Source of the DNA: a virus
DNA: 64,000 nucleotides
Virus record (IMG/VR): IMGVR_UViG_3300045988_154277
Reading direction: 5' to 3' (one strand)
A program made the translations under genes and the position numbers. Below the pieces are notes generated by a model. The model was not told the origin of the DNA. It worked only from the letters and a program-made list of their open reading frames with translations, and searched no databases. Shown piece after piece: positions 8,226-61,883 of the stretch (position 1 is its first letter; each line of letters begins with the position of its first letter).

Positions 8226-8423
8226 TCACTCCTTGGGATGCTTCTGTTGTTCACGGATCGCATCCGCTTGTTCTTGTGTGAGGTATCCTTTTTCCACTTG
8301 TTCGATCAGCCATTTCTCATCGTTGCTCTGATGGTAGTCGTTCTCCATAGAACAACCGGCTGTCCCGATCATCAGGTAACCAGACGCCAAACAAGCACAG
8401 ACGAATAAGCGTATCGTTCTCAT
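8226..8423 (-). CDS. Small lipoprotein (lipobox GTAGC)
   Basis: N-terminus MRTIRLFVCACLASGYLMIGTAGCS. RBS AAAGGA. Overlaps the patatin gene stop by 4 nt. Confidence 0.5.
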   Translation of the reverse strand: MRTIRLFVCACLASGYLMIGTAGCSMENDYHQSNDEKWLIEQVEKGYLTQEQADAIREQQKHPKE

Positions 8424-9220
8424 TGTAACAATCCTTTCGTAAGTTCATAACAGTAATCTCTCAGTTGGAACTTCGGAGACCAGTTCAGAAGACCCCCTCC
8501 GAATCCATCTTCCGGTTGGATCAGAGTGACGTTCGGTTCATCGAAGTACTTTTGCCGTTCCAACTCTTTGTACTCACGGTTCATCACCCCATCCAACAGT
8601 TCCAGAAGTCCAGTGATCAACCCATCTTCTGTTGTATCGTTGTACACGGTCTTCGGACAGAGGAATACGAAGACGTGATCGTACTGACAGAGATTGTTCT
8701 TGGCTGGAGCTGGGATGTTATCAAGAACACCACCGTCTCCATACAGGATGCTGTCGATCATCACTGGTTTGAACAGGAACGGGATAGAGGTTGCTGCCAG
8801 AGCGGATGCTGGAGTAGCTGGCATATGGATCGACTCCCAGTCGATCATACGAGTCAGAGAGGTCATCACTCGCAAACTTGCCAGTCCAGTCATCTCCTGT
8901 TCCAACAGCTTCTTTACTCCATCATTGTCGATCATGTGTCTTGCACAAGAACACATGGTTGATAATGCTCCAGGAACACAGACGTGGAAGAACTCACTTA
9001 CCTTCCTGGTCTGCATCAGTTCTCTGAACCAAGCACTCTCATGTCCACTGTAATAGAGTGAAGAGAACAGAGTAGAACCGGAGCTGGTATGTGCTTGTCC
9101 TGGGATCATCCCATACTCTTCGAATGCTCGCATCACGCCAGTCAAGCACTCCACACTCATCATCCCACCGCCCTGACCAACCAACAGAACCTGGTTGTTC
9201 ATACTTTCAAAGATATTCAT
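8420..9220 (-). CDS. Patatin-like phospholipase
   Basis: Gly-rich oxyanion box LVGQGGGMMS, a Ser-containing GSTL region, and a catalytic Asp block YGDGGVLDNIP (DGGxxxNxP). I moved the start to M11, which has AGGAGG 6 nt upstream. Confidence 0.6.
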   Translation of the reverse strand: MNIFESMNNQVLLVGQGGGMMSVECLTGVMRAFEEYGMIPGQAHTSSGSTLFSSLYYSGHESAWFRELMQTRKVSEFFHVCVPGALSTMCSCARHMIDNDGVKKLLEQEMTGLASLRVMTSLTRMIDWESIHMPATPASALAATSIPFLFKPVMIDSILYGDGGVLDNIPAPAKNNLCQYDHVFVFLCPKTVYNDTTEDGLITGLLELLDGVMNREYKELERQKYFDEPNVTLIQPEDGFGGGLLNWSPKFQLRDYCYELTKGLLQ

Positions 9221-9279
9221 CTCAAACCTCCTATACATAAGGTTACACACTCATATCATTACAACTAGGAGGTATCAAC

Positions 9280-10146
9280 ATGGCTATTCAAATCTGTAAA
9301 CAATGCTGGGCCAACCCTTGTATCTGTGGAAATCAATTTAAAGATTCCACTACGGATCACATCCTTCTCCTGATGGAAGGATTGACCAAGATCCTGAAAC
9401 AGAGAGATGTTCCAATCGACATCAAAGTGGATGGCAAAGATATCAAAGAGCATCTTCTCAGCAAGAACCGTGGGTTGGGTTATACCAATGGAAGTACCCT
9501 TCTCTCTATCCTGGAGGAACAGAAGTTCCGGATCCCGAAAGTCTATCGAGATTACATCCAGTCGAAGACTTTGGCTTCGGAAGTATACTTCGATTTGAAG
9601 AACTCCTTATCTATCCCCCACAGGACAGCTTTTGCGGTCGTCTTGTACACAACTTCCCTTGTGTATACGGACAATTCTTTGCAGTATTTCTTCTACAACC
9701 TGTTGAACGACTCAACGTGCATCTTCTGCAATCCGAAGATGAAAGAGTTGATCCGCTATACAGATCCACATCCTGAGTTCTGCAAGAACCTCTATACGGC
9801 AACCCACCAGATCCACATCATCGTTCAAGAGAAACTGAAGAAAGAAGTCGACCTCGAATGGCTGATCGCATGGGGGATCTTAACCCGTATCGATACGTTC
9901 TTCAGAGGTGATCTTAACATCAAGTTCCAAGCGATGAAAGAGATCGTTGAGCTGATCGGTGGAGGACATAACTTCACGATCAATGATGTCTTCATGCAAC
10001 CGAAGGATATGGTCGATGTGATGGATCATCTCACCAGGAGAGATTACGAATGGTGTGAGATCGAAGATGATGATACTCTCCGTTACTTCTTCAACAAAGA
10101 GCAGATCAAACAGCCGTTCTTCGGTATGCTACCAGCACATGAATAA
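9280..10146 (+). CDS. Hypothetical protein with an N-terminal Cys cluster (CKQCWANPCIC)
   Basis: ORF with RBS AGGAGG, followed by a bidirectional terminator. Confidence 0.45.
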   Translation: MAIQICKQCWANPCICGNQFKDSTTDHILLLMEGLTKILKQRDVPIDIKVDGKDIKEHLLSKNRGLGYTNGSTLLSILEEQKFRIPKVYRDYIQSKTLASEVYFDLKNSLSIPHRTAFAVVLYTTSLVYTDNSLQYFFYNLLNDSTCIFCNPKMKELIRYTDPHPEFCKNLYTATHQIHIIVQEKLKKEVDLEWLIAWGILTRIDTFFRGDLNIKFQAMKEIVELIGGGHNFTINDVFMQPKDMVDVMDHLTRRDYEWCEIEDDDTLRYFFNKEQIKQPFFGMLPAHE

Positions 10147-10148
10147 AA

Positions 10149-10186
10149 CTATAGATACAGGGATGGTGCCATCCCTGTATCTATAG
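10149..10186. terminator. Bidirectional terminator (CTATAGATACAGGGATGG-tg-CCATCCCTGTATCTATAG)
   Basis: 18-bp perfect inverted repeat between convergent stops at 10146 and 10196. Confidence 0.6.
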
Positions 10187-10195
10187 AACATATGT

Positions 10196-11320
10196 TTACT
10201 CAGCGTCGTCTTTCGGTTCTTCTGAAAGATCCAGTCCAGCAAGCTGATCACCGATCACGTTGCTAAGAGACACCATCCCAGGACGACTGTCAAGGAAAGG
10301 ATCCTTGTGTTGTACCGGTTGTTTCTGCTTTGGAGGACGGTTCTGCTTCTTCTGCTGGGTGGGTTTCTGGGGACGAGACTGATGCTCCTGTTGGACAGGT
10401 TGTACTTCCCCAAGCACCGTATACGACCCACCGTTGTCCAGACCTTCCAGTCGACGAAGCTTCCGTTCTTTTGCACGCTTCTTCCGCTCTTCAGCAGCAG
10501 CGAGGATCTGTTCCGGAGTCTTGTCGGTCTTGGTCTTGTAGAAGTCCTGCAACACTCCGCAGATGTAGGTAAGCTTCTTCGTATCGTTATGAAGGAGCTT
10601 ATCGATATTCCGAAACACAGTTTTGATCGCAACAACCCCTTCTGGAAGCTTGTATGCGGGATCTGGTACGGTACGGAACAGACGGGCAGCTGCCTGCGGC
10701 AACAGGATCCGACCACCATCTCTCGTATGAACGGCTTTGTGACAAACAGAAGCGACGAGTTCATAAAGACGTTCCATGTGTCTGGAACGATCCTTTTCCG
10801 GAAGCTTGTTGAGTACTGATTTGTCACAGCAGAGCTCTTCATGGAACTCGGTTAAGACATCCACCAGAACATCATCATAGAAGCTGTTGCCTCCCTGAAG
10901 ATTACGGTTCATCAAATCACAGAACCAGGCGAAATCATCCTTTTTCATATTGAGCTTACGAAGGGACTCGATCCGTTCTCCTGTGATCTTCTTGCGAAGA
11001 GTAGCAGCACGGCGTTCCGCTCTCTGACTGCGAACTTCTTCTTTCTCATTGCCGGGAAGGAGAGCGAGGATGATCGCCTCTGCGCACTTGGCTTTGGTGG
11101 GAAACCGTTTGTTACTGATGAACTTGTTGGTCTTGGGAACGAACAGTTCCACATGGTAGTTACCACGACCGTTGTATTTGCGATGAGTTTGGATCTCGAT
11201 CCCACGGAACATCACGATCCCTCTCTGCCAGATCACTTCGCCTTTTTCGTTGTACTGGGTTTTGAGGATCTTCTCGTTCTTGACGGCGTCATTCCAATCG
11301 TTGAAAAACTGAGTAAACAT
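10196..11320 (-). CDS. Hypothetical basic protein with a K/R/Q-rich C-terminal tail; possible DNA-binding partner of the upstream tubulin-like gene
   Basis: RBS AAGGA. Low-complexity basic tail (RKKRAKERKLRR...QKPTQQKKQNRPPKQKQ). Its promoter region carries a long palindrome. Confidence 0.4.
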   Translation of the reverse strand: MFTQFFNDWNDAVKNEKILKTQYNEKGEVIWQRGIVMFRGIEIQTHRKYNGRGNYHVELFVPKTNKFISNKRFPTKAKCAEAIILALLPGNEKEEVRSQRAERRAATLRKKITGERIESLRKLNMKKDDFAWFCDLMNRNLQGGNSFYDDVLVDVLTEFHEELCCDKSVLNKLPEKDRSRHMERLYELVASVCHKAVHTRDGGRILLPQAAARLFRTVPDPAYKLPEGVVAIKTVFRNIDKLLHNDTKKLTYICGVLQDFYKTKTDKTPEQILAAAEERKKRAKERKLRRLEGLDNGGSYTVLGEVQPVQQEHQSRPQKPTQQKKQNRPPKQKQPVQHKDPFLDSRPGMVSLSNVIGDQLAGLDLSEEPKDDAE

Positions 11321-11330
11321 GTAAGTGTCC

Positions 11331-11365
11331 TTGACTTGTCAACCTGGGTGATATATCACCCAGGT
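11331..11365. promoter_or_regulatory. Palindromic operator-like element (TTGACTTGTCAA followed by ACCTGGGTGATATATCACCCAGGT) over a sigma70-like promoter for the 10196..11320 gene
   Basis: 12+12-bp perfect palindrome. On the minus strand it reads TTCACA, then a 17-nt spacer, then ATATAT. Confidence 0.45.
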
Positions 11366-11399
11366 GATACTGTTGTGAATTGTTTAGACGTATGGTTGA

Positions 11400-12458
11400 T
11401 CAGATGATCAACCCTGCGGCAGTATCATTGCCAGATCCTGCCAGATCTTTGTTGCTGTGATCCTTCTGGATCGTGTTTTCTTGATAACGTTCTCTGGTTT
11501 CGTTCAGGAAGTTGATAAGCTCCTGAGGAACCGTCTTACCGATCGCCGAGAAGAAACGTTTCTCTTCAGCGATACCGACACAGGTGAATGCGGTGAGTAC
11601 ATCCGGAGTCAAACCGGTATCGTTCACCACCATGCAGGCGTGAAGAACATCTCCAACACCGATCACACTGTCATCTTCTCCTGCCAAGTCTTCAGCCTGA
11701 TCGCTATTGGTAGCGGTGACAGACAAAAGATAAAGTCCTGCAGGGCAGTTCATTGTGGTAGGACGCAGATAGTGCATCTTGTCGTTGTAGTCGATCTCCT
11801 CGATCTCTTTGGAGGTGAGAAGGTCGATCATTTCGATCGTTCTCTGAGCCGCTGTCTTATTGACAGCGAATCGTCCAACACCATGGTTGTTGAAAAGCAT
11901 CAATGGGAAATAATGTCCGTTCTTCTCAGCAGAGGATGCGAACGAACGAATCGTATTGATACTGTTGATGCAATCTCTCTCAGAGGAAGCATCCACAACA
12001 CCAACCAGGACTACACAACGATTGCTGTTGCGAAGGATCCTGTGCGCAAGCAGAGGGGCGATCACAGAACCAGATCCACCTGCCAAACTGAACAGGATGA
12101 ATGTGATGTCAGATGCTTGCTTGAACAGATCCGGATGGGTATCGATATACTTCTGGATCGCATCGAGGTTCTTACCACGGTCTTTCCCGGAGCCAAGCTC
12201 ACCGATCGCATCGAACGGGATCTCCTGTGGGATCCCACTGACGTTGGATGCCGAGGTATCGATCACTCGATAGTCGATCTTCGCATCGAACTGTGGGTTG
12301 CATTTGAGGATCGCTTTGAGGATGTTCTGACCACATCCTCCAGCAGCGATTACCTGAACGGTTGGTTGTTTTACCGTGGGGTTCATCACCTTCTGTTCGT
12401 CCTTGAGATCGGACAGATCAGAGAGGTTCGGAGCAGCATACGAAGGTTTCTGCGCCAT
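11400..12458 (-). CDS. Tubulin/FtsZ-like GTPase (PhuZ/TubZ-like)
   Basis: T1-like loop VIAAGGCGQNILK and T4-like loop SLAGGSGSV (compare with GGGTG[ST]G). Size is about 350 aa. RBS AAGGAG. Confidence 0.5.
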   Translation of the reverse strand: MAQKPSYAAPNLSDLSDLKDEQKVMNPTVKQPTVQVIAAGGCGQNILKAILKCNPQFDAKIDYRVIDTSASNVSGIPQEIPFDAIGELGSGKDRGKNLDAIQKYIDTHPDLFKQASDITFILFSLAGGSGSVIAPLLAHRILRNSNRCVVLVGVVDASSERDCINSINTIRSFASSAEKNGHYFPLMLFNNHGVGRFAVNKTAAQRTIEMIDLLTSKEIEEIDYNDKMHYLRPTTMNCPAGLYLLSVTATNSDQAEDLAGEDDSVIGVGDVLHACMVVNDTGLTPDVLTAFTCVGIAEEKRFFSAIGKTVPQELINFLNETRERYQENTIQKDHSNKDLAGSGNDTAAGLII

Positions 12459-12513: not shown

Positions 12514-12541
12514 TAAACATATATTCCAGAGAGGAGCATAC
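12514..12541. terminator. Hairpin TTCCAGAGAGG-agcata-CCTCTCTGGAA downstream of paralog A
   Basis: 11-bp perfect stem. A degenerate CGTATAGAT box follows on the minus strand. Confidence 0.45.
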
Positions 12542-12558
12542 CTCTCTGGAATACAACG

Positions 12559-13926
12559 TTATTTGGATGTTTGTCTCTTATACTCAGCTTCTACAGCTTG
12601 GATGATCTTCTTAGCCCAGGCTCGATCTGCATTTGTGATAACATACTTGTTAGCAGCATTTCTGGCTCTAGATTCTTGCACACGATCTGGGTAAGCAACA
12701 CCACTTTTGTTAGAGTCAAATGGAAGATCATGTTGACTATCCCATAGATGTTTACATTCATGCACGACAGTGTGTATGAACCAATCTTCTTTCGAAGTAT
12801 TATAATTGGATACGAATGCATAAGTCCACCTAGCTATCCACGATAGCAAGTATGTTGCATTTATCCAAAGATTATAACCTTTTAAAGTATTATCGGTGTA
12901 ACACCATCCACCAACTGTCGATATCGTTTCATCTACTGGGTTAGCCCATGCGGATGGCGATACATTTGTTACGACAACAACACCTAGATTCAATGATCCA
13001 CCAAAATAAGACTCCAATCTATTCCTTGTGCCTAAATCAAAAGGGAACATCATGTGGATATGGATCTTTGATCCAGAATAGATCAGGTGTAAGTTTTTCA
13101 AATGATCAGCCAATATGTTTAGTTGATCATACACACGATCTATAACTGTAAACAAAAAGCTTACATACTCTTTGACAGACGTGATATCTTGTATGTTACA
13201 ACCAACACCGTGTAGTATGGGAGCTATGGTTTTACCAAAATCAATTAAGTTTGTAACACATACGGATTCAAACTCGTTACGGTTGTTTTCAGTTAGAGAA
13301 GTAAACCGATCAATATCCTGTCTAAACGATGTCAATATGGATGTGCATTTATCTAAGATATCCAATCTTACATGAAGGTATTCTTGTACCAATTCAGCGT
13401 GTGCTTTTACTCGAGCTCTAGTATACACAAACTCACCGTCTTCATCACTTAACAACCGTTTTAATTGAGCAGTAATATCCTCTATATCGTGAAGTACATC
13501 TCGCTCTGTTATAAATCGAGTCCTTATTGGATTGTCGTGTATTTTACCCAATGTCATTTCTATTTTGTTTAAGTTCTGTTTAAGGTATATTTCCCCATTC
13601 GGATCCGATGTAGAAAACATGGCTGTTAACTTAACTTTGATCAATTGATACGTGCGTATTAACCAAGATAACATTTTCTTGAGAATGTCCTTTAACCACG
13701 CAACGAACTGCTGAATAGCGTTCTTAGCCGCATCCATCAGGTTTTCACAGGCAAACATGTGTTCTATTACGGCTAGGTCTTGATTTGAACACGTTAACAA
13801 CGTAACAGCATTCTCATATGCATCTAATCCAGATTGAATCATATTAAACAACAACGCCTTATCAGCTAGTTGTGTTTTATACTCGTTGTATGCTAAACAA
13901 TCGTGGTATATCGTATCTACGTTCAT
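12559..13926 (-). CDS. HExxH paralog family, large member A (putative zinc-metallopeptidase-like)
   Basis: VVHECKHLWDSQHD and a C-terminal DRAWAKKIIQAVEAEYKRQ stretch, both shared with 21707.., 27944.. and 26192... Conserved N-terminal AYENA...WLKD. I moved the start to the Met that has GGAGA upstream. Confidence 0.55.
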   Translation of the reverse strand: MNVDTIYHDCLAYNEYKTQLADKALLFNMIQSGLDAYENAVTLLTCSNQDLAVIEHMFACENLMDAAKNAIQQFVAWLKDILKKMLSWLIRTYQLIKVKLTAMFSTSDPNGEIYLKQNLNKIEMTLGKIHDNPIRTRFITERDVLHDIEDITAQLKRLLSDEDGEFVYTRARVKAHAELVQEYLHVRLDILDKCTSILTSFRQDIDRFTSLTENNRNEFESVCVTNLIDFGKTIAPILHGVGCNIQDITSVKEYVSFLFTVIDRVYDQLNILADHLKNLHLIYSGSKIHIHMMFPFDLGTRNRLESYFGGSLNLGVVVVTNVSPSAWANPVDETISTVGGWCYTDNTLKGYNLWINATYLLSWIARWTYAFVSNYNTSKEDWFIHTVVHECKHLWDSQHDLPFDSNKSGVAYPDRVQESRARNAANKYVITNADRAWAKKIIQAVEAEYKRQTSK

Positions 13927-13947
13927 GGTGTTCTCCAATCTATAATG

Positions 13948-13982
13948 TGCTATGAGAGAGATCACATATCTCTCTCATAGCA
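13948..13982 (-). promoter_or_regulatory. Hairpin (TGCTATGAGAGAGAT-cac-ATATCTCTCTCATAGCA) between small gene A and large gene A
   Basis: About 15-bp perfect stem inside the cassette, in the same position as the poly-G/C hairpins of cassettes B and D. Confidence 0.4.
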
Positions 13983-14303: not shown

Positions 14304-14663
14304 TTACTTCTTCTGTGAATTCATCATCGAATCAAGCATCTCGCTGAAGTTGTTACAGACTTCTTTCCATACGAACCCAAGGAACGACTCACCACTTCCA
14401 CTGGATTTCGGTTTCCTGGATCTGGCTTTCTTCTTGGCAGCCAACAGATATATCGCTGGGTCTACTTTAGGAAGCTCGATCTCACTGAACTCCACTTCGT
14501 GACGACAGCAAGGACAGATCCAGACTTGCTTATTGTACGGGTCCATCTCGGTCCCACACTCAGGACACTTCGGTCCGAACTCACGATTACACTTACAGCA
14601 CATGTAGTCTTCGTTGAACAACACGAAGTCACGGCATCCACATTCTGGGCAACGAACATCCAT
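14304..14663 (-). CDS. Multi-CxxC zinc-ribbon protein
   Basis: CPECGC...CCKC...CPECG...CPCCRH. RBS AAGGAGA. Its stop abuts the start of small gene A. Confidence 0.5.
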   Translation of the reverse strand: MDVRCPECGCRDFVLFNEDYMCCKCNREFGPKCPECGTEMDPYNKQVWICPCCRHEVEFSEIELPKVDPAIYLLAAKKKARSRKPKSSGSGESFLGFVWKEVCNNFSEMLDSMMNSQKK

Positions 14664-14786
14664 AATCATTCTCCTTCTTTTAGTTGGTTGTTGCATAGTA
14701 TCTGCTTATCACTACTATTTGAAATATACCGTCCTCTCCTAAGCATGGTATGCCATTCGTACAGTATAACAAGATAGGAGACTATC

Positions 14787-21706: not shown

Positions 21707-23068
21707 TTACTTGTTCTTCTGTCTCTTATACTCAGCTTCTACAGCTTGGATGATCTTCTTAGCCCAGGCTCGATCAGAGTCTGTGATTTCAAACGTACGT
21801 GCTGCGTCATTGGCAACATGTTCGTGTTCTTGTTCATCGTAATCTTTGGTCATATCAATCGTAGTACCCATCTGCGAATCGTACAAATGACGACACTCGT
21901 GTACAACAACGAATAGAAATTGGTCTACTTTAGAAGAAGTACCAACAGTGACTGCATTAAAGATACGATCAAACCACGACAAGATCACCTTCACATTGAC
22001 ATAGAAGTCAACCGTATTGGTACCTGTACCAACCATACACCATCCCATCATAGCGGTAGGTTTGTCATCAAGTGGATTAGGCCACAAAGCTGGATTCGTA
22101 TTCGTCACAACCATATTTCGAATCCTGAATGCCATCCCATAATGTTCACCAAGTCTCTTCACGAAATCTTGGTCCATAGGAAAGGTCATGTTGATACTGT
22201 ATCCGTCTTTCGTATAAGCTTTATGAAGATCTTGCAGATACTTCGATGCGAATTCACACACTGTATCCAATGCACTTATGGTAATGGTCAGGAACTTAAC
22301 GAATCCTTTTACGATATTGGAAGGCTGAGCCTCTTCATCCACATCTGCACGAACAAACAGATTGTAATGATTGGATACAACTTTATCAATCTTCTCAACC
22401 AACGTCTCCATGTCGGTTGTGTCAGTAACTTGTTTCTTGAATTCGTCAAGTGCTCTAATGTACTGACCGATCGATCCTGATATTTGATTCAAATCATTAC
22501 CAAGTGCTGTTGCATGTTTGTAGATCTCTCTTCTACGATAAGTGATACCACCATCTTTCTCCACTAAGCCAGCTTTAAACATATCATCCAGTTGTCGGTT
22601 AAAGTCTTCCAAATTGGAGAAATCTGTGTTGTCACTCAATTCGATTCGAAGATCAGAAAGCTTATTTATGACAGTCATCCAAGCTTGATACACTTTGTCG
22701 ATATCATACTTCCATTTCATAGGCTGGTCCAAACCAGGAGAGAAGTGTGTCTTGATGGAAGCTTTGATATCTCGAAGGACTCGAAATAGCTTACCGACAA
22801 AAGCAATGATCCTGTCTTTCAGCCATTTGAAGAATTGACTAACTCCTTCTTTCGCTTGTTGGAAGATCCCTTCTTCACCTATTAGCATCTGGAAGTGTTC
22901 GGTATAACCGTATTTGCGTTCATATTGGTTCACGATGGTGGCATTTTCATAAGCCACGATACCAGAGATGATCTCTTTGTAGAGATCATTGAGTTCGTGA
23001 AACCGTTGGATATGTTTTATAGCTTGTTCTTGTGCAAGCATCTCATCGAAAAAAGAAATGTTGTACAT
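21707..23068 (-). CDS. HExxH paralog family, large member B
   Basis: VVHECRHLYDSQ and C-terminal DRAWAKKIIQAVEAEYKRQKNK. RBS GAGGA. Confidence 0.55.
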   Translation of the reverse strand: MYNISFFDEMLAQEQAIKHIQRFHELNDLYKEIISGIVAYENATIVNQYERKYGYTEHFQMLIGEEGIFQQAKEGVSQFFKWLKDRIIAFVGKLFRVLRDIKASIKTHFSPGLDQPMKWKYDIDKVYQAWMTVINKLSDLRIELSDNTDFSNLEDFNRQLDDMFKAGLVEKDGGITYRRREIYKHATALGNDLNQISGSIGQYIRALDEFKKQVTDTTDMETLVEKIDKVVSNHYNLFVRADVDEEAQPSNIVKGFVKFLTITISALDTVCEFASKYLQDLHKAYTKDGYSINMTFPMDQDFVKRLGEHYGMAFRIRNMVVTNTNPALWPNPLDDKPTAMMGWCMVGTGTNTVDFYVNVKVILSWFDRIFNAVTVGTSSKVDQFLFVVVHECRHLYDSQMGTTIDMTKDYDEQEHEHVANDAARTFEITDSDRAWAKKIIQAVEAEYKRQKNK

Positions 23069-26191: not shown

Positions 26192-27544
26192 TCACTGTGC
26201 CTGACGACGTACTTCAGTATCCAACCGTTGTAAGACCATTCTAGCGAATGCAATATCAGCAGGAGTTGACTTGTAGTTATCAGCTGCATATCGAGCACGC
26301 GACTCATAGGTACGATCAGCATATTCGTGCGAACCCGTCTCGACTTTAAATGTACCACCTATCCTGTTTTGAATATCAAACAAATGTCGACATTCGTGAA
26401 CGATAGTTTTAATGAGCGATTCTTCTTTAGAACCACGTAATCTACTCCATCGAGATATACTGGACATCAGAAAGTTGTAATTGCACCAAATATTCGGTAT
26501 TGGTACATCTTCGAACATCCACCCTGTGATAGAACTCTTTACTCCAGTTATTGGATCTGGCCAAGTTCTCGAGTCCCTGTTAGTGACTATCAACTGATTA
26601 ACTTTGAACACACCACCATAGTACTCTCCAAGACGGCGACATAAATCGTGACTTATAGGAAATGAAAGATGTATATCGATCTCATTGCACATATACGCAT
26701 GTCGTAAGTTAACTAAGTATCCTTCCAACGTACTAACGTTGATACTTGTATACTTTATCTTAAGTAAGAGTAGTTTCAACAAAGTGTTGCACACGATAAT
26801 CTTTTCATCGAGTGTAGTGACTTTAATGGTATCGTTAGCGCTCATATAGTTGTGTTGAAGTGTCTCACACATAGAACGAATCAAACGATCAACACGATGT
26901 GTTATACTAGGATCGTTTGCATTGAGTTGGTTTATAGTATCTGTCAATGACAGTATCTCTGGAAGATGCTGATTCAACATAGTGATCGACTGACATATCA
27001 CCTCAGCATGTGACTTCAACCTAGTTGCGGTAACTGCATTTCCACGAACAATCGTATTTAGAAGATGTCCAAGATCTGATGATTGTGATATTAACAATCG
27101 TTCTGTTAGTTCAACCTGCTCTGGTCTATTGACCCAGAAATCAATAGGATCTTGTAGAATAACAAACAACTTTTGTTCTATTGTGGATATGTCATAGCCC
27201 AATTTGATCAAACGATCGAGATCGTCAACATGAAGGATAGTCATAATCTTTGATTTAATCTTAGTGATTAAATTCAACACAAATGCAACTATCTTTCTAA
27301 TTGTATCTTTCAACCAAGTTATGAAATTTTCAATAACCTGCCTGGCATCATCAATTAGACTCTCGTCTCCGATTAGATCATGAAAATCCCTGGTGACACC
27401 ATGCTGTTCATAAAACCTTACAACAACTGTAGCATTGTGATATGCGTTGAAAGCGATATCTTGTTTCTGAATTATGTCGTCCAAACATTGTAGTTCGATA
27501 TAGTCGTGAACAGCATCGTAGCAATCAAATACATCAATATTCAT
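26192..27544 (-). CDS. HExxH paralog family, large member C (the most divergent of the four)
   Basis: IVHECRHLFDIQ and C-terminal ADIAFARMVLQRLDTEVRRQ. ATGA overlap with small C. Confidence 0.55.
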   Translation of the reverse strand: MNIDVFDCYDAVHDYIELQCLDDIIQKQDIAFNAYHNATVVVRFYEQHGVTRDFHDLIGDESLIDDARQVIENFITWLKDTIRKIVAFVLNLITKIKSKIMTILHVDDLDRLIKLGYDISTIEQKLFVILQDPIDFWVNRPEQVELTERLLISQSSDLGHLLNTIVRGNAVTATRLKSHAEVICQSITMLNQHLPEILSLTDTINQLNANDPSITHRVDRLIRSMCETLQHNYMSANDTIKVTTLDEKIIVCNTLLKLLLLKIKYTSINVSTLEGYLVNLRHAYMCNEIDIHLSFPISHDLCRRLGEYYGGVFKVNQLIVTNRDSRTWPDPITGVKSSITGWMFEDVPIPNIWCNYNFLMSSISRWSRLRGSKEESLIKTIVHECRHLFDIQNRIGGTFKVETGSHEYADRTYESRARYAADNYKSTPADIAFARMVLQRLDTEVRRQAQ

Positions 27545-27943: not shown

Positions 27944-29419
27944 TTATTTCTGCTTCTGTCTCTTGATTTCTGCTTCTACCTGGTCAAGGATCTTCTTCGC
28001 CCAAGCACGGTCACGATCAGTGATCTCGAACTTGGTAGCAGCTTCCTGAGCTCTTCGTTCATGTTGGTATTTGCGATATTTGAAGAACGAGTCTCCTTCT
28101 CGCATCACATCGAACTCTTTCCCATACTGCATATCCCAGAGATGTTTGCACTCATGAACGACAGTACCGATGAACGCATCGTATTTGTTGATGCGATTGT
28201 CATTCAAGAACGCACCACTGAATCTTGCGATCCAAGATGTCATGAACCGTGCACTCACCCAAAGTTCCGTTGGGAATGACACACCAGATCCATTGCCTGG
28301 ATAACACCATCCCATCAACCCAGGAGTTTCAGTAGCGATGTTCCAGGTGGTCGGACTCATATTCGTCACGATAAGCTTCGTCACTTTGATCGGAGCTCCA
28401 TAGAAATCAGAAAGTCTCTTGATCATCGCCTGATCGAACGGGAACTCCATATGGATCGACACTTCACCTTTGTTGTACGCAGAATGCAGCTCTTTCAAAA
28501 TAGATACCCCTTTACGAATGCATCTATTGAAGAACTGACTGTAAGAAGTTGCGAATGCAATACAAGCACTTGCCTGGATCCGGAGTACTGCGATAAAACT
28601 GCTTTCATCTGATACATTAACGTGTTCATATATTTTGGTTTTGTTTGTATCAAGCAACAGGCTCCGTGCTCCAGGGAATCGTCTTATGAAATCCGCGATC
28701 TTATCTCTGGTACGTGTAAGATCATCGTGTTCATTCAACGACTTTTGGAGGGTATCGATCATCTTACCCATCGTGTTCATCATCGTAACATAACTGTTGT
28801 TGATTATGTACTCAAACTTCTGAGCATATTCACAGAACTTCATACGAGGATAAGAGGTTTCCTTCTTACATTCTTCAATCCCACCACACAGTGTATTGTA
28901 CGCTTGATTTAAAAAGTCGTTTAAAACAGAAACCATCTCACCGATGGTGGTAGCTTGTCTGACGTCGTTACCGATCTGGTTTTCTTTGGTTGCCATCTCG
29001 AACACAGAACGGAAGAACCCAGCTACTCTAATGATCTCATAAGGACTCTTAGTTGCGATCATCTTGTTGATATGAATAAGCGACCACACCATCGATGTTA
29101 AGATATCTACGATACTACTTATGATGTTGAAGATGAGGCTAGCCAGTTGGATCAACTTCTTCTTCAACCAACTAATGATGCTACCAAGTACTTCTTTGGC
29201 GGAGTCGAAAAGGCCTTCCTCTCCGATCAGCAGTTTGAAATGTTCTGTGTATCCGTACTTGTCCTGATACTGTTCCACCACGGTAGCGTTATGGATCGCC
29301 ATCAGTCCGTTGGTTACTTCCATACCCAAACGTTCCGTCTCCATCAGGTTACGATCCAGTTCGTTCAGTTTCAACTGATACTGGTAATCCTCTAAGAATG
29401 TAATATCTTCCACGGTCAT
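27944..29419 (-). CDS. HExxH paralog family, large member D
   Basis: VVHECKHLWDMQYG and C-terminal DRAWAKKILDQVEAEIKRQKQK. Confidence 0.55.
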   Translation of the reverse strand: MTVEDITFLEDYQYQLKLNELDRNLMETERLGMEVTNGLMAIHNATVVEQYQDKYGYTEHFKLLIGEEGLFDSAKEVLGSIISWLKKKLIQLASLIFNIISSIVDILTSMVWSLIHINKMIATKSPYEIIRVAGFFRSVFEMATKENQIGNDVRQATTIGEMVSVLNDFLNQAYNTLCGGIEECKKETSYPRMKFCEYAQKFEYIINNSYVTMMNTMGKMIDTLQKSLNEHDDLTRTRDKIADFIRRFPGARSLLLDTNKTKIYEHVNVSDESSFIAVLRIQASACIAFATSYSQFFNRCIRKGVSILKELHSAYNKGEVSIHMEFPFDQAMIKRLSDFYGAPIKVTKLIVTNMSPTTWNIATETPGLMGWCYPGNGSGVSFPTELWVSARFMTSWIARFSGAFLNDNRINKYDAFIGTVVHECKHLWDMQYGKEFDVMREGDSFFKYRKYQHERRAQEAATKFEITDRDRAWAKKILDQVEAEIKRQKQK

Positions 29420-39822: not shown

Positions 39823-39847
39823 TTAAGTAATATATACGTGAAAAACG
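39823..39847 (-). promoter_or_regulatory. Recurring TATATAT box (TTAAGTAATATATACGTGAAAAACG)
   Basis: 25-mer shared with the 47459 and 61830 copies. Adjacent to the hairpin at 39864-39899. Confidence 0.45.
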
Positions 39848-47458: not shown

Positions 47459-47512
47459 CTCTGTCAGGTACTCATTAAGTAATATATACGTGAAAAACGA
47501 TGAACTACACTG
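47459..47512 (-). promoter_or_regulatory. 54-bp element identical to 61830-61883 (CTCTGTCAGGTACTCATTAAGTAATATATACGTGAAAAACGATGAACTACACTG); candidate late promoter
   Basis: Exact 54-mer repeat. Minus-strand reading: TTTTTCACGTATATATTACTTAATGAG. Confidence 0.45.
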
Positions 47513-47614: not shown

Positions 47615-49315
47615 TTACACCATCATCTTCACCGGCATCAGCCTGATCCAGTCATCGGAGGTGCGCACTGCGATGTAGGAGATCAGAACATTCGAACACG
47701 GCTGGAAGAAGATCGTGAACGTACGAGGATCATTCTGCTTGGACTTCACCATGAAGTACTCACAGTGAGAGGACGGTTTTTCCGGACCACCAAGATCCTG
47801 GGGTTCACAGTTGAACCTGAAGTTCGGCAGTAACATACCGTTGAACGGAAGCGTGGTATACACGACGTTCCTGTTCTTCATACGGACAACCGTATATCTG
47901 AGCAACAGGTCGATCATGTTGGTATAGATCTGCATCGCCTCCAGTGCCTGCGGAGTCTTCTCACCATCGTTGTCGGTATGGAGAGACATCTCACGATATC
48001 TTGCGATATCGCGGATCGGGTGCCCATCCACCAAGACATTGCCATAAACAGCGATGTAGTCGTTCAGACCCTCCGGTGTATTGGGATCGCTCAGCTGGAT
48101 ATCGAGGATCGACTTCAAGATCGTGGAACGAGCCACTGTGTTCAGACGATCACGGAACCCAGCCTGGGACCGAAGTTTGTCGACTTTGGCATCCACCGTC
48201 TCTTCCAAGTCCAGATAGGACAGCAGTTCCCTCAGTGAGTTGATCTTGAACGAACTGTCGGACGGATCCACCGTATTGTCATACAAAGCACCATACATGG
48301 CTGCCATGTTGAACTCCAGGATGAAGATCCCTTCCAACCTGTTCTTGAGATTGGCTTTCAGTTCGCCGAGGATGGCTTCCATGTTGCGGATATATGCACA
48401 CTTGGAGTTCGCCGGAGATGCTTTCGCCATCTCTTTCAGCTTCTTGATCACCGCTTCCGATTCTGCTCTGGGAACCTCATAGGCTTGCAACTGGTTGTAG
48501 TTGACCGATATGTACCTCTCTCTGGAGAGACAGTCCCGCATCCCATGGATCGCCGTCTCGACGGCTTCCTTCGGAGATACGAATCCACGATCCGTATCGA
48601 TCGTAGCCATATCGATCTCCTCTTCCGTAGCGGCATCCTTGTACTGGACGATCGTACCATCACCCCAACCGAGGTGAACATCCGTACCCGCACGACCACT
48701 TTCCGTATTGGTGACCAAGACCGGGGGATTGTAGAGTTCGGGAAGGTCCATCTTCTTCGTCCAGGTCTTCAGATCGGTACCTTCCGAAGACGGCTGCGGC
48801 TGTTGTACAGGCTGCTGAGGCGGAGTGACGATCTGTGTGTTCACCGGAGCTGCTTGCGGGGCAGTCGGAGGCGTCACCACACCATTCGGGTTCGCATAGA
48901 ACCCACCCTGATGAGGAACCGGAGCTTGAACCTGCCCAGTGAACAGAGAGGTTGTCTGATATCCGTTGTTCGCCAACATCGGGTTGTACATCTGAGGTTG
49001 TACCACAACGCCGTTGGTATACTGCGGCTGGTACATCGCCTGACGCTGAACCTGAGCGAACCTGGCAAGCATCTGCTGGATGAGATTCGACAGATACTGC
49101 TGGATCTGTTGATCCGTCGGTTCCGTTCCAAGGGGGAACTTGTTGAAGATAAGGTTGACGAACTCACCGAAGTGCTGGTTGAACTCGTTCACCAGATACG
49201 GCTGGACGTTGGGCAGGATCTGCCCATTGGCGACGAAGGTCTGCAGCATGTTGTTGAACAGAGCATTCACCCTGTTCGAGAACATCGCTGTCGGCGTGTA
49301 GCTAATATTAGCCAT
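47615..49315 (-). CDS. Hypothetical Gln/Pro-rich protein (start moved to MANISY)
   Basis: AGGAGAAAACATT before the internal ATG. Q/P-rich low-complexity middle segment. Confidence 0.45.
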   Translation of the reverse strand: MANISYTPTAMFSNRVNALFNNMLQTFVANGQILPNVQPYLVNEFNQHFGEFVNLIFNKFPLGTEPTDQQIQQYLSNLIQQMLARFAQVQRQAMYQPQYTNGVVVQPQMYNPMLANNGYQTTSLFTGQVQAPVPHQGGFYANPNGVVTPPTAPQAAPVNTQIVTPPQQPVQQPQPSSEGTDLKTWTKKMDLPELYNPPVLVTNTESGRAGTDVHLGWGDGTIVQYKDAATEEEIDMATIDTDRGFVSPKEAVETAIHGMRDCLSRERYISVNYNQLQAYEVPRAESEAVIKKLKEMAKASPANSKCAYIRNMEAILGELKANLKNRLEGIFILEFNMAAMYGALYDNTVDPSDSSFKINSLRELLSYLDLEETVDAKVDKLRSQAGFRDRLNTVARSTILKSILDIQLSDPNTPEGLNDYIAVYGNVLVDGHPIRDIARYREMSLHTDNDGEKTPQALEAMQIYTNMIDLLLRYTVVRMKNRNVVYTTLPFNGMLLPNFRFNCEPQDLGGPEKPSSHCEYFMVKSKQNDPRTFTIFFQPCSNVLISYIAVRTSDDWIRLMPVKMMV

Positions 49316-49856: not shown

Positions 49857-51347
49857 TTATGCAGCCACAGTGTTACCACTATAGCGCCCCCATACACACC
49901 AGTCATGTGTGAGAGGTAGAGCCAAGATACTTTCAACCACCAACTGAGACGGGTGTGCCTTGAGGAGTGCGACAGGCATATTCCGTCCACCTGTTGTCGA
50001 TTTGGTTTCTGTATTCTCCAGTGAGCGAAATCTCTTCGTGAGTACAGTCAGAAGACTATTGTCGTTGCAAATCGTTGGATTCGCACGGAACACGGAGTTC
50101 GCCATCATCCAGCTCTCTCCTTGAGAAGCTGTGGTGACGAATCGTTTCACCGTATCCGGTGTCAATCCTTCGTTCTTCGCATTGATCACTCCGAAAAGCT
50201 TCGTATTGATTGACGACACCAATGGTGCCATCAACTGACTCAACGAACCGATCTTCTTAGAGAACAAGTTCGTCGGTTCGTAACTGACGATCCACCGATC
50301 GATGTTGTAGAACACCTCTCGGAGAAGTTCGTAGATGCCGTTGACTTGGATGCCGATCGTAGCCAACTGATACTGTGCCGGTGGGTCCAGCAAAGTCGCA
50401 GTGGTCTCAAGATGCTTCTCTGCATTGTCGTAGAGCAGCTGAGCATTCGTAGTACTCGGATAGGTGTATTTGCCTAGCACGGTCTTGTAATAGACCGGGT
50501 GGGTCGCTATCAAATCACGTAATCCGAATCTCGTATACTCAGTGAGACACATCAGGTAAGATGCGATCACCCTTCTCTTGAAGAGATCGTCAAGACAGGA
50601 GTTGTGAACCTTAAGGTAGATATCTTCTCTGATCTCGATGTGAGAGTACTCGTTCGACTCTTCCATCTTCGGTACCAAGGAGATCTCTCCAGGCTGAAAC
50701 CCATAATACTGCATCGTCTTATCGAACGATAGTTCGACCAGATGATACAGGATGATTGGGGTAACACCAGCCTTCTTCCCGCGTCCTCTCTTTCCTTGAT
50801 GGATCTTCACTGTGGGTACGATCTCACGACATACTCTGCCGTCAGTCGTTGTGAAGACGAACTGCTCTGATCTTCTGAAAGTCAATGGTGCACGCATGAC
50901 TTTAATGATCAGACCATCTTGGATACGATGAAGACCGCCGCGCTCTACGATGGCGAACATCGGGAAATATTGCGTGTCGGATAGGATCACCGCTCCATGA
51001 TCCAGATAAGGGATACTGATGTGCAGTGGGTATTGCACATTTTCGAACTCGAAGATGAACTTCAACTGTTCGAATGAACTCTTCTGGATTTGGATCTTCT
51101 TCTTCAGGATCGTGTTGTTACGGATATACTCGATACGCTCGTCAGGAGTTAACCGTTGATACCCAATATAACGTAATCGACCTTTGAAAAGCTTTACTGA
51201 TTCTTGGAACATCACATCGAGATAATCAGGTATCTTCTTAATACTGTTCTCTCTGAAGTGAAGGAGGAAGTCGTCGTTGAAATCCGGGAGCAGATCACTT
51301 GCTCCGATCAGGACATTCCTCAGTACTGGATTGAAATGTTCATCCAC
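49857..51347 (-). CDS. Hypothetical protein (496 aa)
   Basis: ORF co-directional with the 51376.. gene. Confidence 0.45.
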   Translation of the reverse strand: MDEHFNPVLRNVLIGASDLLPDFNDDFLLHFRENSIKKIPDYLDVMFQESVKLFKGRLRYIGYQRLTPDERIEYIRNNTILKKKIQIQKSSFEQLKFIFEFENVQYPLHISIPYLDHGAVILSDTQYFPMFAIVERGGLHRIQDGLIIKVMRAPLTFRRSEQFVFTTTDGRVCREIVPTVKIHQGKRGRGKKAGVTPIILYHLVELSFDKTMQYYGFQPGEISLVPKMEESNEYSHIEIREDIYLKVHNSCLDDLFKRRVIASYLMCLTEYTRFGLRDLIATHPVYYKTVLGKYTYPSTTNAQLLYDNAEKHLETTATLLDPPAQYQLATIGIQVNGIYELLREVFYNIDRWIVSYEPTNLFSKKIGSLSQLMAPLVSSINTKLFGVINAKNEGLTPDTVKRFVTTASQGESWMMANSVFRANPTICNDNSLLTVLTKRFRSLENTETKSTTGGRNMPVALLKAHPSQLVVESILALPLTHDWCVWGRYSGNTVAA

Positions 51348-52569: not shown

Positions 52570-52588
52570 TAGTAATATATACGTGAAA
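52570..52588 (-). promoter_or_regulatory. TATATAT box copy (AGTAATATATACGTGAAAG)
   Basis: Same core as at 39823, 47459 and 61830, immediately 5' of the 51376.. gene. Confidence 0.4.
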
Positions 52589-59734: not shown

Positions 59735-60520
59735 TTACATATTGTTCAGTGTACTGCAGATCGCTCTTACAGTACTGATCTCCTGGCGCACTACAAGATC
59801 AGAGAAGTTCAACCAGCATACAGCACATTTACGAATATCTCGTACCGTGCTATCGTTCGATGTGCGAAGCTTCGTATTGTATTCATTTACAACACGATTA
59901 CCAGCATCATCAAGTTTCCAACTGATATCATCCATCTGCAGAACGATAGACTGCATCCGTTTCACGGCTTGTTCAGAACTCCATTTGGAAGATTTGAACT
60001 TGACGACGGGACGAGCCACTCGCGGATCGAAGGTCAAATCATCGTTCTTGTCCAGATAGAAGTTCTTCTGACCGTTCAGAATGGTACGGATCGTTGCAAG
60101 CAATTTCACCATAGAAGTATGCTTCAACGGATCGATACCGACGAAGCCTTGGGTCACTTTCGTAGTAGCCAAAACGAGAGCTTGGATATCCTCGTACTTG
60201 TAGGGATCGGTTTCTTTCTCGGCAAGACGTTTAGGATCCAAGCTGTTCAGCCAATCATAGTAACCTTCGAATGTTTGATTGATTCCATTTTGCCAATTCT
60301 GTTTCTGCTGAGCTCTTCGACGTTCAGCACGCTCTTTCTGTTTCTTGCGGAACCACTCGATAAGATTGGAGATGATACCCTCTTCCGAGATGTAGAGAGA
60401 CTCGGTTCCGATGAATAACTCATCTGGAATACGATCCGATGTGACCGTTTGCATACGTACGTCGAACGATGGATCATTCGTGGTTTTGTTCAGGATATCA
60501 CCCAGGTGAAGATCGATCAT
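59735..60520 (-). CDS. Hypothetical protein (start moved to MIDLHLG)
   Basis: AAGGAG 6 nt before the internal ATG. Confidence 0.45.
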   Translation of the reverse strand: MIDLHLGDILNKTTNDPSFDVRMQTVTSDRIPDELFIGTESLYISEEGIISNLIEWFRKKQKERAERRRAQQKQNWQNGINQTFEGYYDWLNSLDPKRLAEKETDPYKYEDIQALVLATTKVTQGFVGIDPLKHTSMVKLLATIRTILNGQKNFYLDKNDDLTFDPRVARPVVKFKSSKWSSEQAVKRMQSIVLQMDDISWKLDDAGNRVVNEYNTKLRTSNDSTVRDIRKCAVCWLNFSDLVVRQEISTVRAICSTLNNM

Positions 60521-60677
60521 AGTAAACTCCTTGATGTTGATAGTTACATAGGATGCTCTGTGCATCAAACGTTCTTCAAACAAAAAGAAAACATCAATAC
60601 CATCGAATACAGGAGGAGTCTCCAGCTCCTCCTGGGTTGCGTTGTTGATGTTCAGCTATAAACTAAGATAGGTTAGG

Positions 60678-61829: not shown

Positions 61830-61883
61830 CTCTGTCAGGTACTCATTAAGTAATATATACGTGAAAAACGATGAACTACACTG
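61830..61883 (-). promoter_or_regulatory. Second copy of the identical 54-bp TATATAT-box element
   Basis: Exact match to 47459-47512. Confidence 0.45.

Follow-up and report, generated by a model that had tools for sequence, protein, structure and literature searches.

A PhuZ-type tubulin gene followed by an intergenic hairpin and an orphan basic-protein gene in DNA of an uncultivated phiKZ-like jumbo phage

The window analysed here is a 64,000-nucleotide (nt) stretch of DNA, IMG/VR virus record IMGVR_UViG_3300045988_154277. Its minus strand carries the gene of a 352-amino-acid (aa) tubulin homologue of the PhuZ type and, after a gap of 79 nt and transcriptionally downstream, the gene of a basic 374-aa protein, here called X. 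A perfect 24-bp palindrome lies in the gap. An earlier sequence-only reading had taken the locus for a phage tubulin with a TubR-like or autoregulated partner and a palindromic operator. The analysis establishes the family, fold and motifs of the tubulin, the order of the genes, the statistics of the hairpins and the lack of conservation of the hairpin sequence; the features are collected in Table 1.

Table 1. Coordinates of the tubulin gene, the gene of X, their sub-features and the hairpins around them
Feature	Position	Strand	Basis or remarks
PhuZ-type phage tubulin gene	11400..12458	minus	352 aa, isoelectric point (pI) 5.1; Pfam, PHROG, PDB, AlphaFold2, Foldseek
N-terminal extension, about 32 residues	12363..12458	minus	alignments
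T1 loop AGGCGQN (residues 38-45)	12324..12347	minus	alignment
T4 signature AGGSGS (residues 126-131)	12066..12083	minus	alignment; codons GCA GGT GGA TCT GGT TCT
T7 loop EIDYNDK (residues 221-227), catalytic D223 and D226	11778..11798	minus	alignment
C-terminal tail (residues 331-352), end G349-L-I-I	11403..11468	minus	alignment
24-bp perfect palindrome, ACCTGGGTGATA followed by TATCACCCAGGT	11342..11365	strandless	12+12, loop-less as DNA
Orphan basic protein X, 374 aa	10196..11320	minus	pI 9.4, net charge +16
N-terminal domain of X, best conserved part	11051..11320	minus	helix, five-strand beta meander, helix; motif ELFVPxTNKFI
Basic helix and K/Q/P-rich disordered linker of X (residues about 270-340)	10301..10513	minus	pI 10.2
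Conserved C-terminal peptide of X	10226..10285	minus	RPGMVSLxNVIGDQLxGL, then acidic end
Strong 17-18-bp hairpin with T-run, terminator-like	10149..10186	strandless	ends the minus-strand cluster and a convergent plus-strand gene
Terminator-like hairpin	12520..12555	minus	3' of HExxH gene, 5' of PhuZ gene

Sequence searches with the 352-aa protein returned PhuZ proteins as the best matches. The Pfam Tubulin family (PF00091) matched with an E value of 8.9e-8 and 33.1 bits, barely above its gathering cut-off of 33 bits, and PHROG 4733, 'tubulin PhuZ', matched with an E value of 1.1e-33. A phmmer search of the PDB sequences gave PhuZ of phage Goslar (9PM9, 1.9e-8), PhuZ of phage 201phi2-1 (PhuZ201; 3R4V, 2.2e-7) and phiKZ gp39 (1.5e-4), with FtsZ lower at about 1e-2. 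The AlphaFold2 (AF2) model, computed with 30 homologues as input, had a predicted local distance difference test score (pLDDT) of 83.1 and a predicted template modelling score (pTM) of 0.81. A Foldseek search of the PDB with this model gave PhuZ of Goslar (3e-19), PhuZ201 (8e-17) and phiKZ TubZ (8e-16) as the best matches; PhuZ or phiKZ TubZ occupied ranks 1-4, followed by TubZ of phage c-st (ranks 5-6), CetZ and FtsZ. At E<=1e-3 there were 650 matches, and the top 50 listed all belonged to the tubulin superfamily. Model and fold matches show that the two-domain GTPase fold of tubulin and FtsZ is present, and the PHROG, PDB phmmer and Foldseek results all place the protein nearer to PhuZ than to TubZ, CetZ or FtsZ. 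Sequence identity is low: about 30% to the nearest PhuZ of cultured phages by tblastn (Erwinia, Serratia and Klebsiella phages), and only 17-20% in structural alignments with PhuZ of known structure. The gene encodes a bona fide PhuZ-type phage tubulin. The sequence-only reading had proposed this fold and type, with a P-loop of another NTPase class as the alternative; PHROG, PDB phmmer and the AF2/Foldseek ranking bear the proposal out, the fold search giving PhuZ, TubZ, CetZ and FtsZ. An identical PhuZ was found on contigs up to about 282 kb, and one member of the cluster is DAG42739.1, titled in NCBI only 'MAG TPA: hypothetical protein [Bacteriophage sp.]'.

Motifs were examined in an alignment of the proteins of this clade with PhuZ of 201phi2-1, a phiKZ-like phage, RAY, Eowyn and FLC9. 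The GGxGxN and AGGSGS loops picked out by the sequence-only reading are both present and are the tubulin T1 and T4 loops. Across the clade and the five PhuZ proteins of cultured phages, G40 and G41 of T1 are invariant, with G43 and N45 nearly so, and G127, S129, G130 and S131 of T4 are invariant. D223 and D226 of the T7 loop correspond to D187 and D190 of PhuZ201 (phmmer PDB alignment to LDVHD), and are invariant in the alignment of the clade with cultured-phage PhuZ. The N-terminal extension contains a conserved AP(T/S)LxxL motif in the clade, is absent from cultured-phage PhuZ in the alignments, and has an AF2 pLDDT <50; a strong ribosome-binding site, AAGGAG, precedes the PhuZ ATG by 6 nt. 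The sequence-only reading had also proposed to look for the acidic C-terminal tail that serves PhuZ in filament contacts. The tail, modelled with low pLDDT, is there, and its end, Gly followed by three hydrophobic residues, is common to PhuZ201, the phiKZ-like phage, RAY, Eowyn and FLC9, but its knuckle is only weakly acidic. The acidic knuckle of the PhuZ tail is critical for polymerisation (PMC3678025). PhuZ of the window is an ordinary new example of a known family, with the N-terminal extension and the weak acidic knuckle as traits specific to its clade.

Genes elsewhere in the window are those of a phiKZ-like phage. PHROG matches include the beta subunit of RNA polymerase (RNAP), tail sheath, head maturation protease and several virion proteins; Pfam matches include Peptidase_S80, the phiKZ gp28 vertex protein and gp29; and a homologue of gp123, a subunit of the phiKZ non-virion RNAP (nvRNAP), is encoded at 49857-51212. 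Related contigs measure 264-282 kb. Judged by this gene content, the window comes from an uncultivated phiKZ-like jumbo phage with a genome of about 264-282 kb. Metagenomic surveys have catalogued more than 1,000 genomes with chimallin and PhuZ, among them clades that are enriched in the human mouth, the surveyed phages encoding both having genomes of 200-324 kb (PMC12625630). One more PhuZ is thus of little news value by itself.

The palindrome between the two genes occurs as a single copy in the window and in 0 of 100 shuffles. A perfect palindrome of 12+12 bp had been reported at 11331-11365; the perfect symmetry stands, but its true extent is 11342-11365, and a separate small TTGAC..GTCAA repeat is included if the start is taken as 11331. 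Folded as RNA, the element has a stem of 10 bp closed by a loop of 4 nt (centroid -17.6 kcal/mol, z -2.34). The sequence 3' of the stem is UGACAAGUC, which lacks a U-run, and a terminator scan did not list the site. Only 21 nt, with an AAGGA ribosome-binding site among them, separate the hairpin from the ATG of the gene of X. In the orthologous loci L001, L002, L004 and L005, a hairpin lies 29-37 nt past the PhuZ stop codon and 20-28 nt before the next ATG, with loops of 3-6 nt and unrelated stem sequences (stem arms: CACCTGGGTGA in the window, CACCTGGAGA in L004, ATCTTGG in L005, ATCGGAG in L002 and ACGGAGGTGT in L001). The two genes are also paired in three more distant loci (L008, L011 and L018), where no significant hairpin was found in the 29-41-nt gaps. 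A second small inverted repeat, GGTTGATCA TC TGATCAACC at 11388-11408, overlaps the PhuZ stop codon.

Where structure is conserved and sequence is free to vary, an RNA element is indicated and not a site for a conserved protein. Because the position of the hairpin is kept in the orthologous loci while its stem sequence is free, we read the palindrome as an RNA element: it is a generic intergenic RNA hairpin, not an operator. The promoter that the palindrome had been said to overlap was not found, a consensus scan giving no sigma-70-like site within 11300-11400. A role as operator or centromere likewise fails on the unconserved stem sequence, on the missing hairpin in distant loci and on the lack of a repeat array. 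There are no tandem repeats near the palindrome and no cluster of half-sites, the half-site matches being scattered in coding DNA, and no Rfam family was found at the palindrome. One exact 13-nt half-site copy, ACCTGGGTGATAT, lies on the minus strand at 60495-60507 inside a 276-aa gene (59735-60565); it is non-palindromic and probably due to chance. The hairpin is most likely a leaky terminator, an attenuator or a stabiliser of the 3' end. Since it lacks a U-tract, has short arms and lies 21 nt from the start codon, it is likelier to be leaky or stabilising than to be a full stop.

Hairpins of this kind are common in the window. Perfect hairpins whose stems reach at least 10 bp number 28, and 23 of these fall within intergenic DNA, which makes up 5.2 kb (8%) of the window; mononucleotide shuffles give 0.8. 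Nearly every intergenic gap after a gene end contains a long perfect stem-loop, usually directly past the stop codon. Six of the intergenic hairpins are loop-less palindromes, the element at 11342 and five others, and with arms of 12 nt this element is among the shortest hairpins of the window. The stable hairpin just past a stop codon is shared with the intergenic stem-loops and terminators of phiKZ-like phages; the 11342 element differs in its missing U-tract, its shortness and its closeness to the next start.

X belongs to a lineage-specific orphan family. It has 13 close homologues, all metagenomic, and a profile search of 1.8 billion representatives gave 43 full-length relatives. Sequence and profile searches of Pfam, NCBIfam and the PDB and a Foldseek search of BFVD gave no match, and the only PHROG match was a weak one of the C-terminal peptide to PHROG 5700 (E 3e-4), a profile of 37 residues. 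Family, profile and structure searches did not reveal a helix-turn-helix (HTH) or any other recognisable DNA-binding domain. In the AF2 model (pLDDT 74, pTM 0.52), a helical domain reaches about residue 291, and residues 298-353 have a pLDDT <50. The C-terminal peptide takes the form S-[LIV]-G-D-x-F-G-D-x-L-D across the family, with R346-S351 and L360 invariant among the close homologues. The ideas that this peptide mimics the PhuZ tail or is a motif for beta-clamp binding were rejected on inspection of the alignment, in which Q and the spacing vary across the family. The K/R/Q-rich tail ascribed to the protein proved to be a real rich region at residues ~270-340, followed by an acidic stretch of 34 residues at the end of the protein (pI 4.05). 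The further suggestion of a TubR-like or autoregulated partner did not hold: X has no HTH, and its gene lies downstream, not upstream, of the tubulin gene.

PhuZ is encoded directly upstream of X on the same strand in 9 of the 12 informative loci (the window, L001, L002/L003, L004, L005, L008, L011, L018 and L019). The gaps in these pairs are 29-79 nt, and the identity of X falls to about 20%. X diverges much faster than PhuZ: its identity is 63% in L002, where that of PhuZ is 90%, and 37% in L008, where that of PhuZ is 82%. The two proteins are oppositely charged. The whole block is syntenic across the loci, running from an S80 protease and a ClpP-like protein through PhuZ and X to patatin and DUF4326, with further genes in between. 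Within one lineage, the pairing of PhuZ with X is genuine and of long standing, but it is not obligate. The hairpin-less gap in the three distant loci implies one transcript for both genes, and PhuZ and X are probably expressed as a single transcript in several members.

In L006 (3129-4820) and L020 (2087-3736), an oppositely oriented gene of ~550-563 aa occupies the PhuZ slot upstream of X; that of L006 has a faint RNA_pol_Rpb1_2 match. The X proteins of this sublineage are short, about 312-318 aa. Like Erwinia phage Asesino, the sublineage may be a branch that lacks PhuZ. A tblastn search with X and three distant members gave nothing in about 50,000 phage records, and an hhalign comparison of X with RAY gp211 gave a probability of 0.1%. 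Scans for related loci that started from single distant X proteins (three scans) or from the whole family alignment (one) also yielded nothing of use.

Our main explanation joins these results: a PhuZ-type tubulin of a phiKZ-like phage, an RNA stem-loop after its gene, and the orphan X downstream. We give it a probability of about 0.8. From here on we infer polymerisation, a cellular role, co-transcription and any contact between PhuZ and X. By analogy with characterised PhuZ proteins, the protein would bind GTP through its T1 and T4 loops and polymerise head-to-tail, D223 and D226 of one subunit completing the GTPase site of the next, and its C-terminal tail would clamp the neighbouring subunit. 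The dynamic filaments would then position or rotate the phage replication compartment and bring capsids there. At the 3' end of the PhuZ message, the hairpin most likely serves as a partial terminator, attenuator or stabiliser, with read-through supplying X, which is the last gene of the minus-strand cluster shared with PhuZ. The likeliest role of X, with the odds nonetheless against it, would be that of a basic accessory factor on the acidic PhuZ polymer, or of a cargo linker through its C-terminal peptide; otherwise it would have a role independent of PhuZ.

Several observations weigh against parts of this explanation. The acidic knuckle stretch of the tail holds 2 acidic residues, whereas that of PhuZ201 has 6. 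A phmmer search with RAY gp222 did not detect chimallin in the 64-kb window, and PDB searches of five larger ORFs of the window (394-618 aa; the 585- and 571-aa ORFs excluded) were negative for it; since chimallin was not found in the window, we only infer a nucleus-forming lifestyle of this phage. Lacking a U-tract, the hairpin is no more than a candidate terminator. At three loci (L006, L020 and L009), X has no PhuZ gene beside it. Conversely, hmmsearch of the PhuZ regions of RAY, Eowyn and FLC9 did not find X near PhuZ, the annotated PhuZ neighbours in 201phi2-1 and OMKO1 include no gene comparable to X, and X is absent beside PhuZ in 11 other IMG/VR lineages, the one locus of 12 that had it being the window's own relative. 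Because X occurs without PhuZ beside it and PhuZ without X beside it, their adjacency may reflect conserved gene order rather than function.

Alternatives for the tubulin itself find little room. Were it a TubZ, CetZ or FtsZ-like homologue with another role, such as interference with host division, the Foldseek matches to FtsZ and CetZ structures at probability 1.0, the borderline Pfam score and the missing chimallin would fit; the top sequence and fold matches are nevertheless all PhuZ, the PhuZ-specific end of the C-terminal tail is conserved and the genome context is phiKZ-like, which makes such a homologue very improbable. The model of the sequence-only reading, a type III TubZRC-like system for DNA positioning with X as a TubR- or TubY-like adaptor or autoregulator and the palindrome as centromere or operator, is rejected as even less credible. 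It can draw on the good fold matches to the c-st TubZ structures, on the perfection and uniqueness of the palindrome in the window and on the basic, Lys/Arg-rich region of X, superficially like the lysine cluster of TubY (PMC7762940). The TubZ-TubR-tubC systems (with TubY) of Bacillus plasmids and Clostridium phage c-st do share with this locus a tubulin-family GTPase beside a basic protein and a tubulin C-terminal tail as a potential cofactor site (PMC3678025). In contrast to them, the locus has no winged-helix TubR and no iterated centromere, the single palindrome being unconserved, and its 374-aa partner is encoded downstream, whereas tubR lies upstream of the tubulin gene. TubY combines a MerR-like HTH, a coiled coil and a lysine cluster (PMC7762940); X is like it only in its basic region and gave no MerR-like HTH match. 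With the PhuZ of Chimalliviridae (201phi2-1 gp59, 3R4V; phiKZ gp39 'TubZ', 3ZBQ; Goslar, 9PM9), the protein shares the fold, the T1 and T4 loops, the T7 aspartates, the tail ending in Gly and three hydrophobic residues, and a phiKZ-like jumbo phage with nvRNAP genes as its setting. It differs from them in its low identity, the N-terminal extension of ~32 residues, the weaker knuckle, the orphan gene directly downstream and the lack of a visible chimallin within the 64 kb.

The function of X is less settled than the identity of PhuZ. Slightly favoured is the reading that X has no functional relation to PhuZ and is a lineage-specific nucleic-acid-binding, virion-internal or host-takeover factor, adjacent to PhuZ as part of a collinear block. 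The synteny of the whole block, the persistence of X in L006 and L020 while an RNAP-like opposite-strand gene fills the PhuZ slot, and the much faster evolution of X in L002 and L008 all agree with it. Same-strand adjacency with gaps of 29-79 nt that survives to ~20% identity of X in 9 of 12 loci speaks against it, as does the hairpin-less gap in three distant loci. That X is instead a PhuZ-associated factor is a candidate reading with a rather low probability. In its strongest form, which we think improbable, X would be the first dedicated factor of this kind, a co-transcribed basic protein resembling microtubule-associated proteins, or a regulator of polymerisation. The N-terminal domain and the K/Q/P-rich linker would then bind the acidic filament, and the C-terminal peptide would tie the filament to a cargo, for example the shell, a capsid or the membrane; this too we regard as doubtful.

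Other features of the window were noted beside these main subjects. A Q/P-rich 566-aa protein (47615-49315, minus strand) was tried as a divergent chimallin because RAY chimallin is also Q/P-rich at its N-terminus; no support was obtained, profile search included. Its first 190 residues are Q/P-rich, it is highly conserved, with 99% identity on many ~280 kb contigs, and searches of phage records, Pfam and the PDB, profile search included, gave it no match. On the hairpin after the gene of X, a sub-threshold Rfam match to FinP (10145-10198; 29.3 bits, gathering cut-off 45) almost certainly reflects hairpin shape only. A shared phage promoter motif, GATATGTC, tried 5' of PhuZ, was not enriched (8 matches, 7.3 expected). 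The sequence CGTATATATTAC occurs in four exact minus-strand copies (39827-39838, 47479-47490, 52572-52583 and 61850-61861), three of them within TTTTTCACGTATATATTACTTAA; all are intergenic, on the coding strand and just past a long hairpin, and none is near the genes of PhuZ or X. The copies resemble the AT-rich early-promoter consensus of phiKZ.

Among the neighbouring genes, the ORF with an HExxH motif that had been described directly upstream of the tubulin gene is present at 12559-13965. It is one of four paralogous minus-strand genes (12559-13926 for this copy; the others at 21707-23068, 26192-27544 and 27944-29419) for proteins of ~450-490 aa with the motif VVHEC(K/R)HL(W/Y/F)D and mutual identities of 26-45%. 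Related hairpins, ATCTAGATGT(A/G)GGAGA..., lie 3' of three of the four genes. None of the six related loci examined for them (L001, L002, L004, L005, L008 and L011) gave an HExxH homologue, L004 retaining just the last 30 nt of the gene and the hairpin. This pattern points to a duplicating, indel-variable cassette. No homology was found between the divergent upstream gene and RAY gp209. At 14304-14696 on the minus strand, a 130-aa protein with several CxxC pairs (CPECGC...CCKC...CPECG...CPCC), which looks like a zinc ribbon, is encoded by the gene that opens the cluster ending in PhuZ and X. A patatin-like phospholipase candidate on the minus strand at 8420-9250 scored 27.1 bits against Pfam Patatin, just below the cut-off of 27.7, whereas its orthologues at related loci were called as Patatin.

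As part of the phage-nucleus lifestyle, PhuZ spindles have been studied well. The PhuZ of this recurrent phage, DAG42739.1, can now receive an annotation beyond 'hypothetical protein', and its conserved N-terminal extension and degraded acidic knuckle bear on how universal the tail-knuckle mechanism of assembly is. Perfect intergenic palindromes in phiKZ-like genomes should be taken for generic RNA hairpins and not for operators. A fast-evolving orphan kept beside PhuZ across deep divergence is a concrete candidate for a PhuZ cofactor, though only a somewhat novel lead. PhuZ accessory proteins do not figure in a 2026 review of jumbo phage biology (PMC13282480), so a confirmed partner role of X would be new. 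If X were such a dedicated factor, the PhuZ subfamily with the AP(T/S)LxxL extension would be a two-component cytoskeleton.

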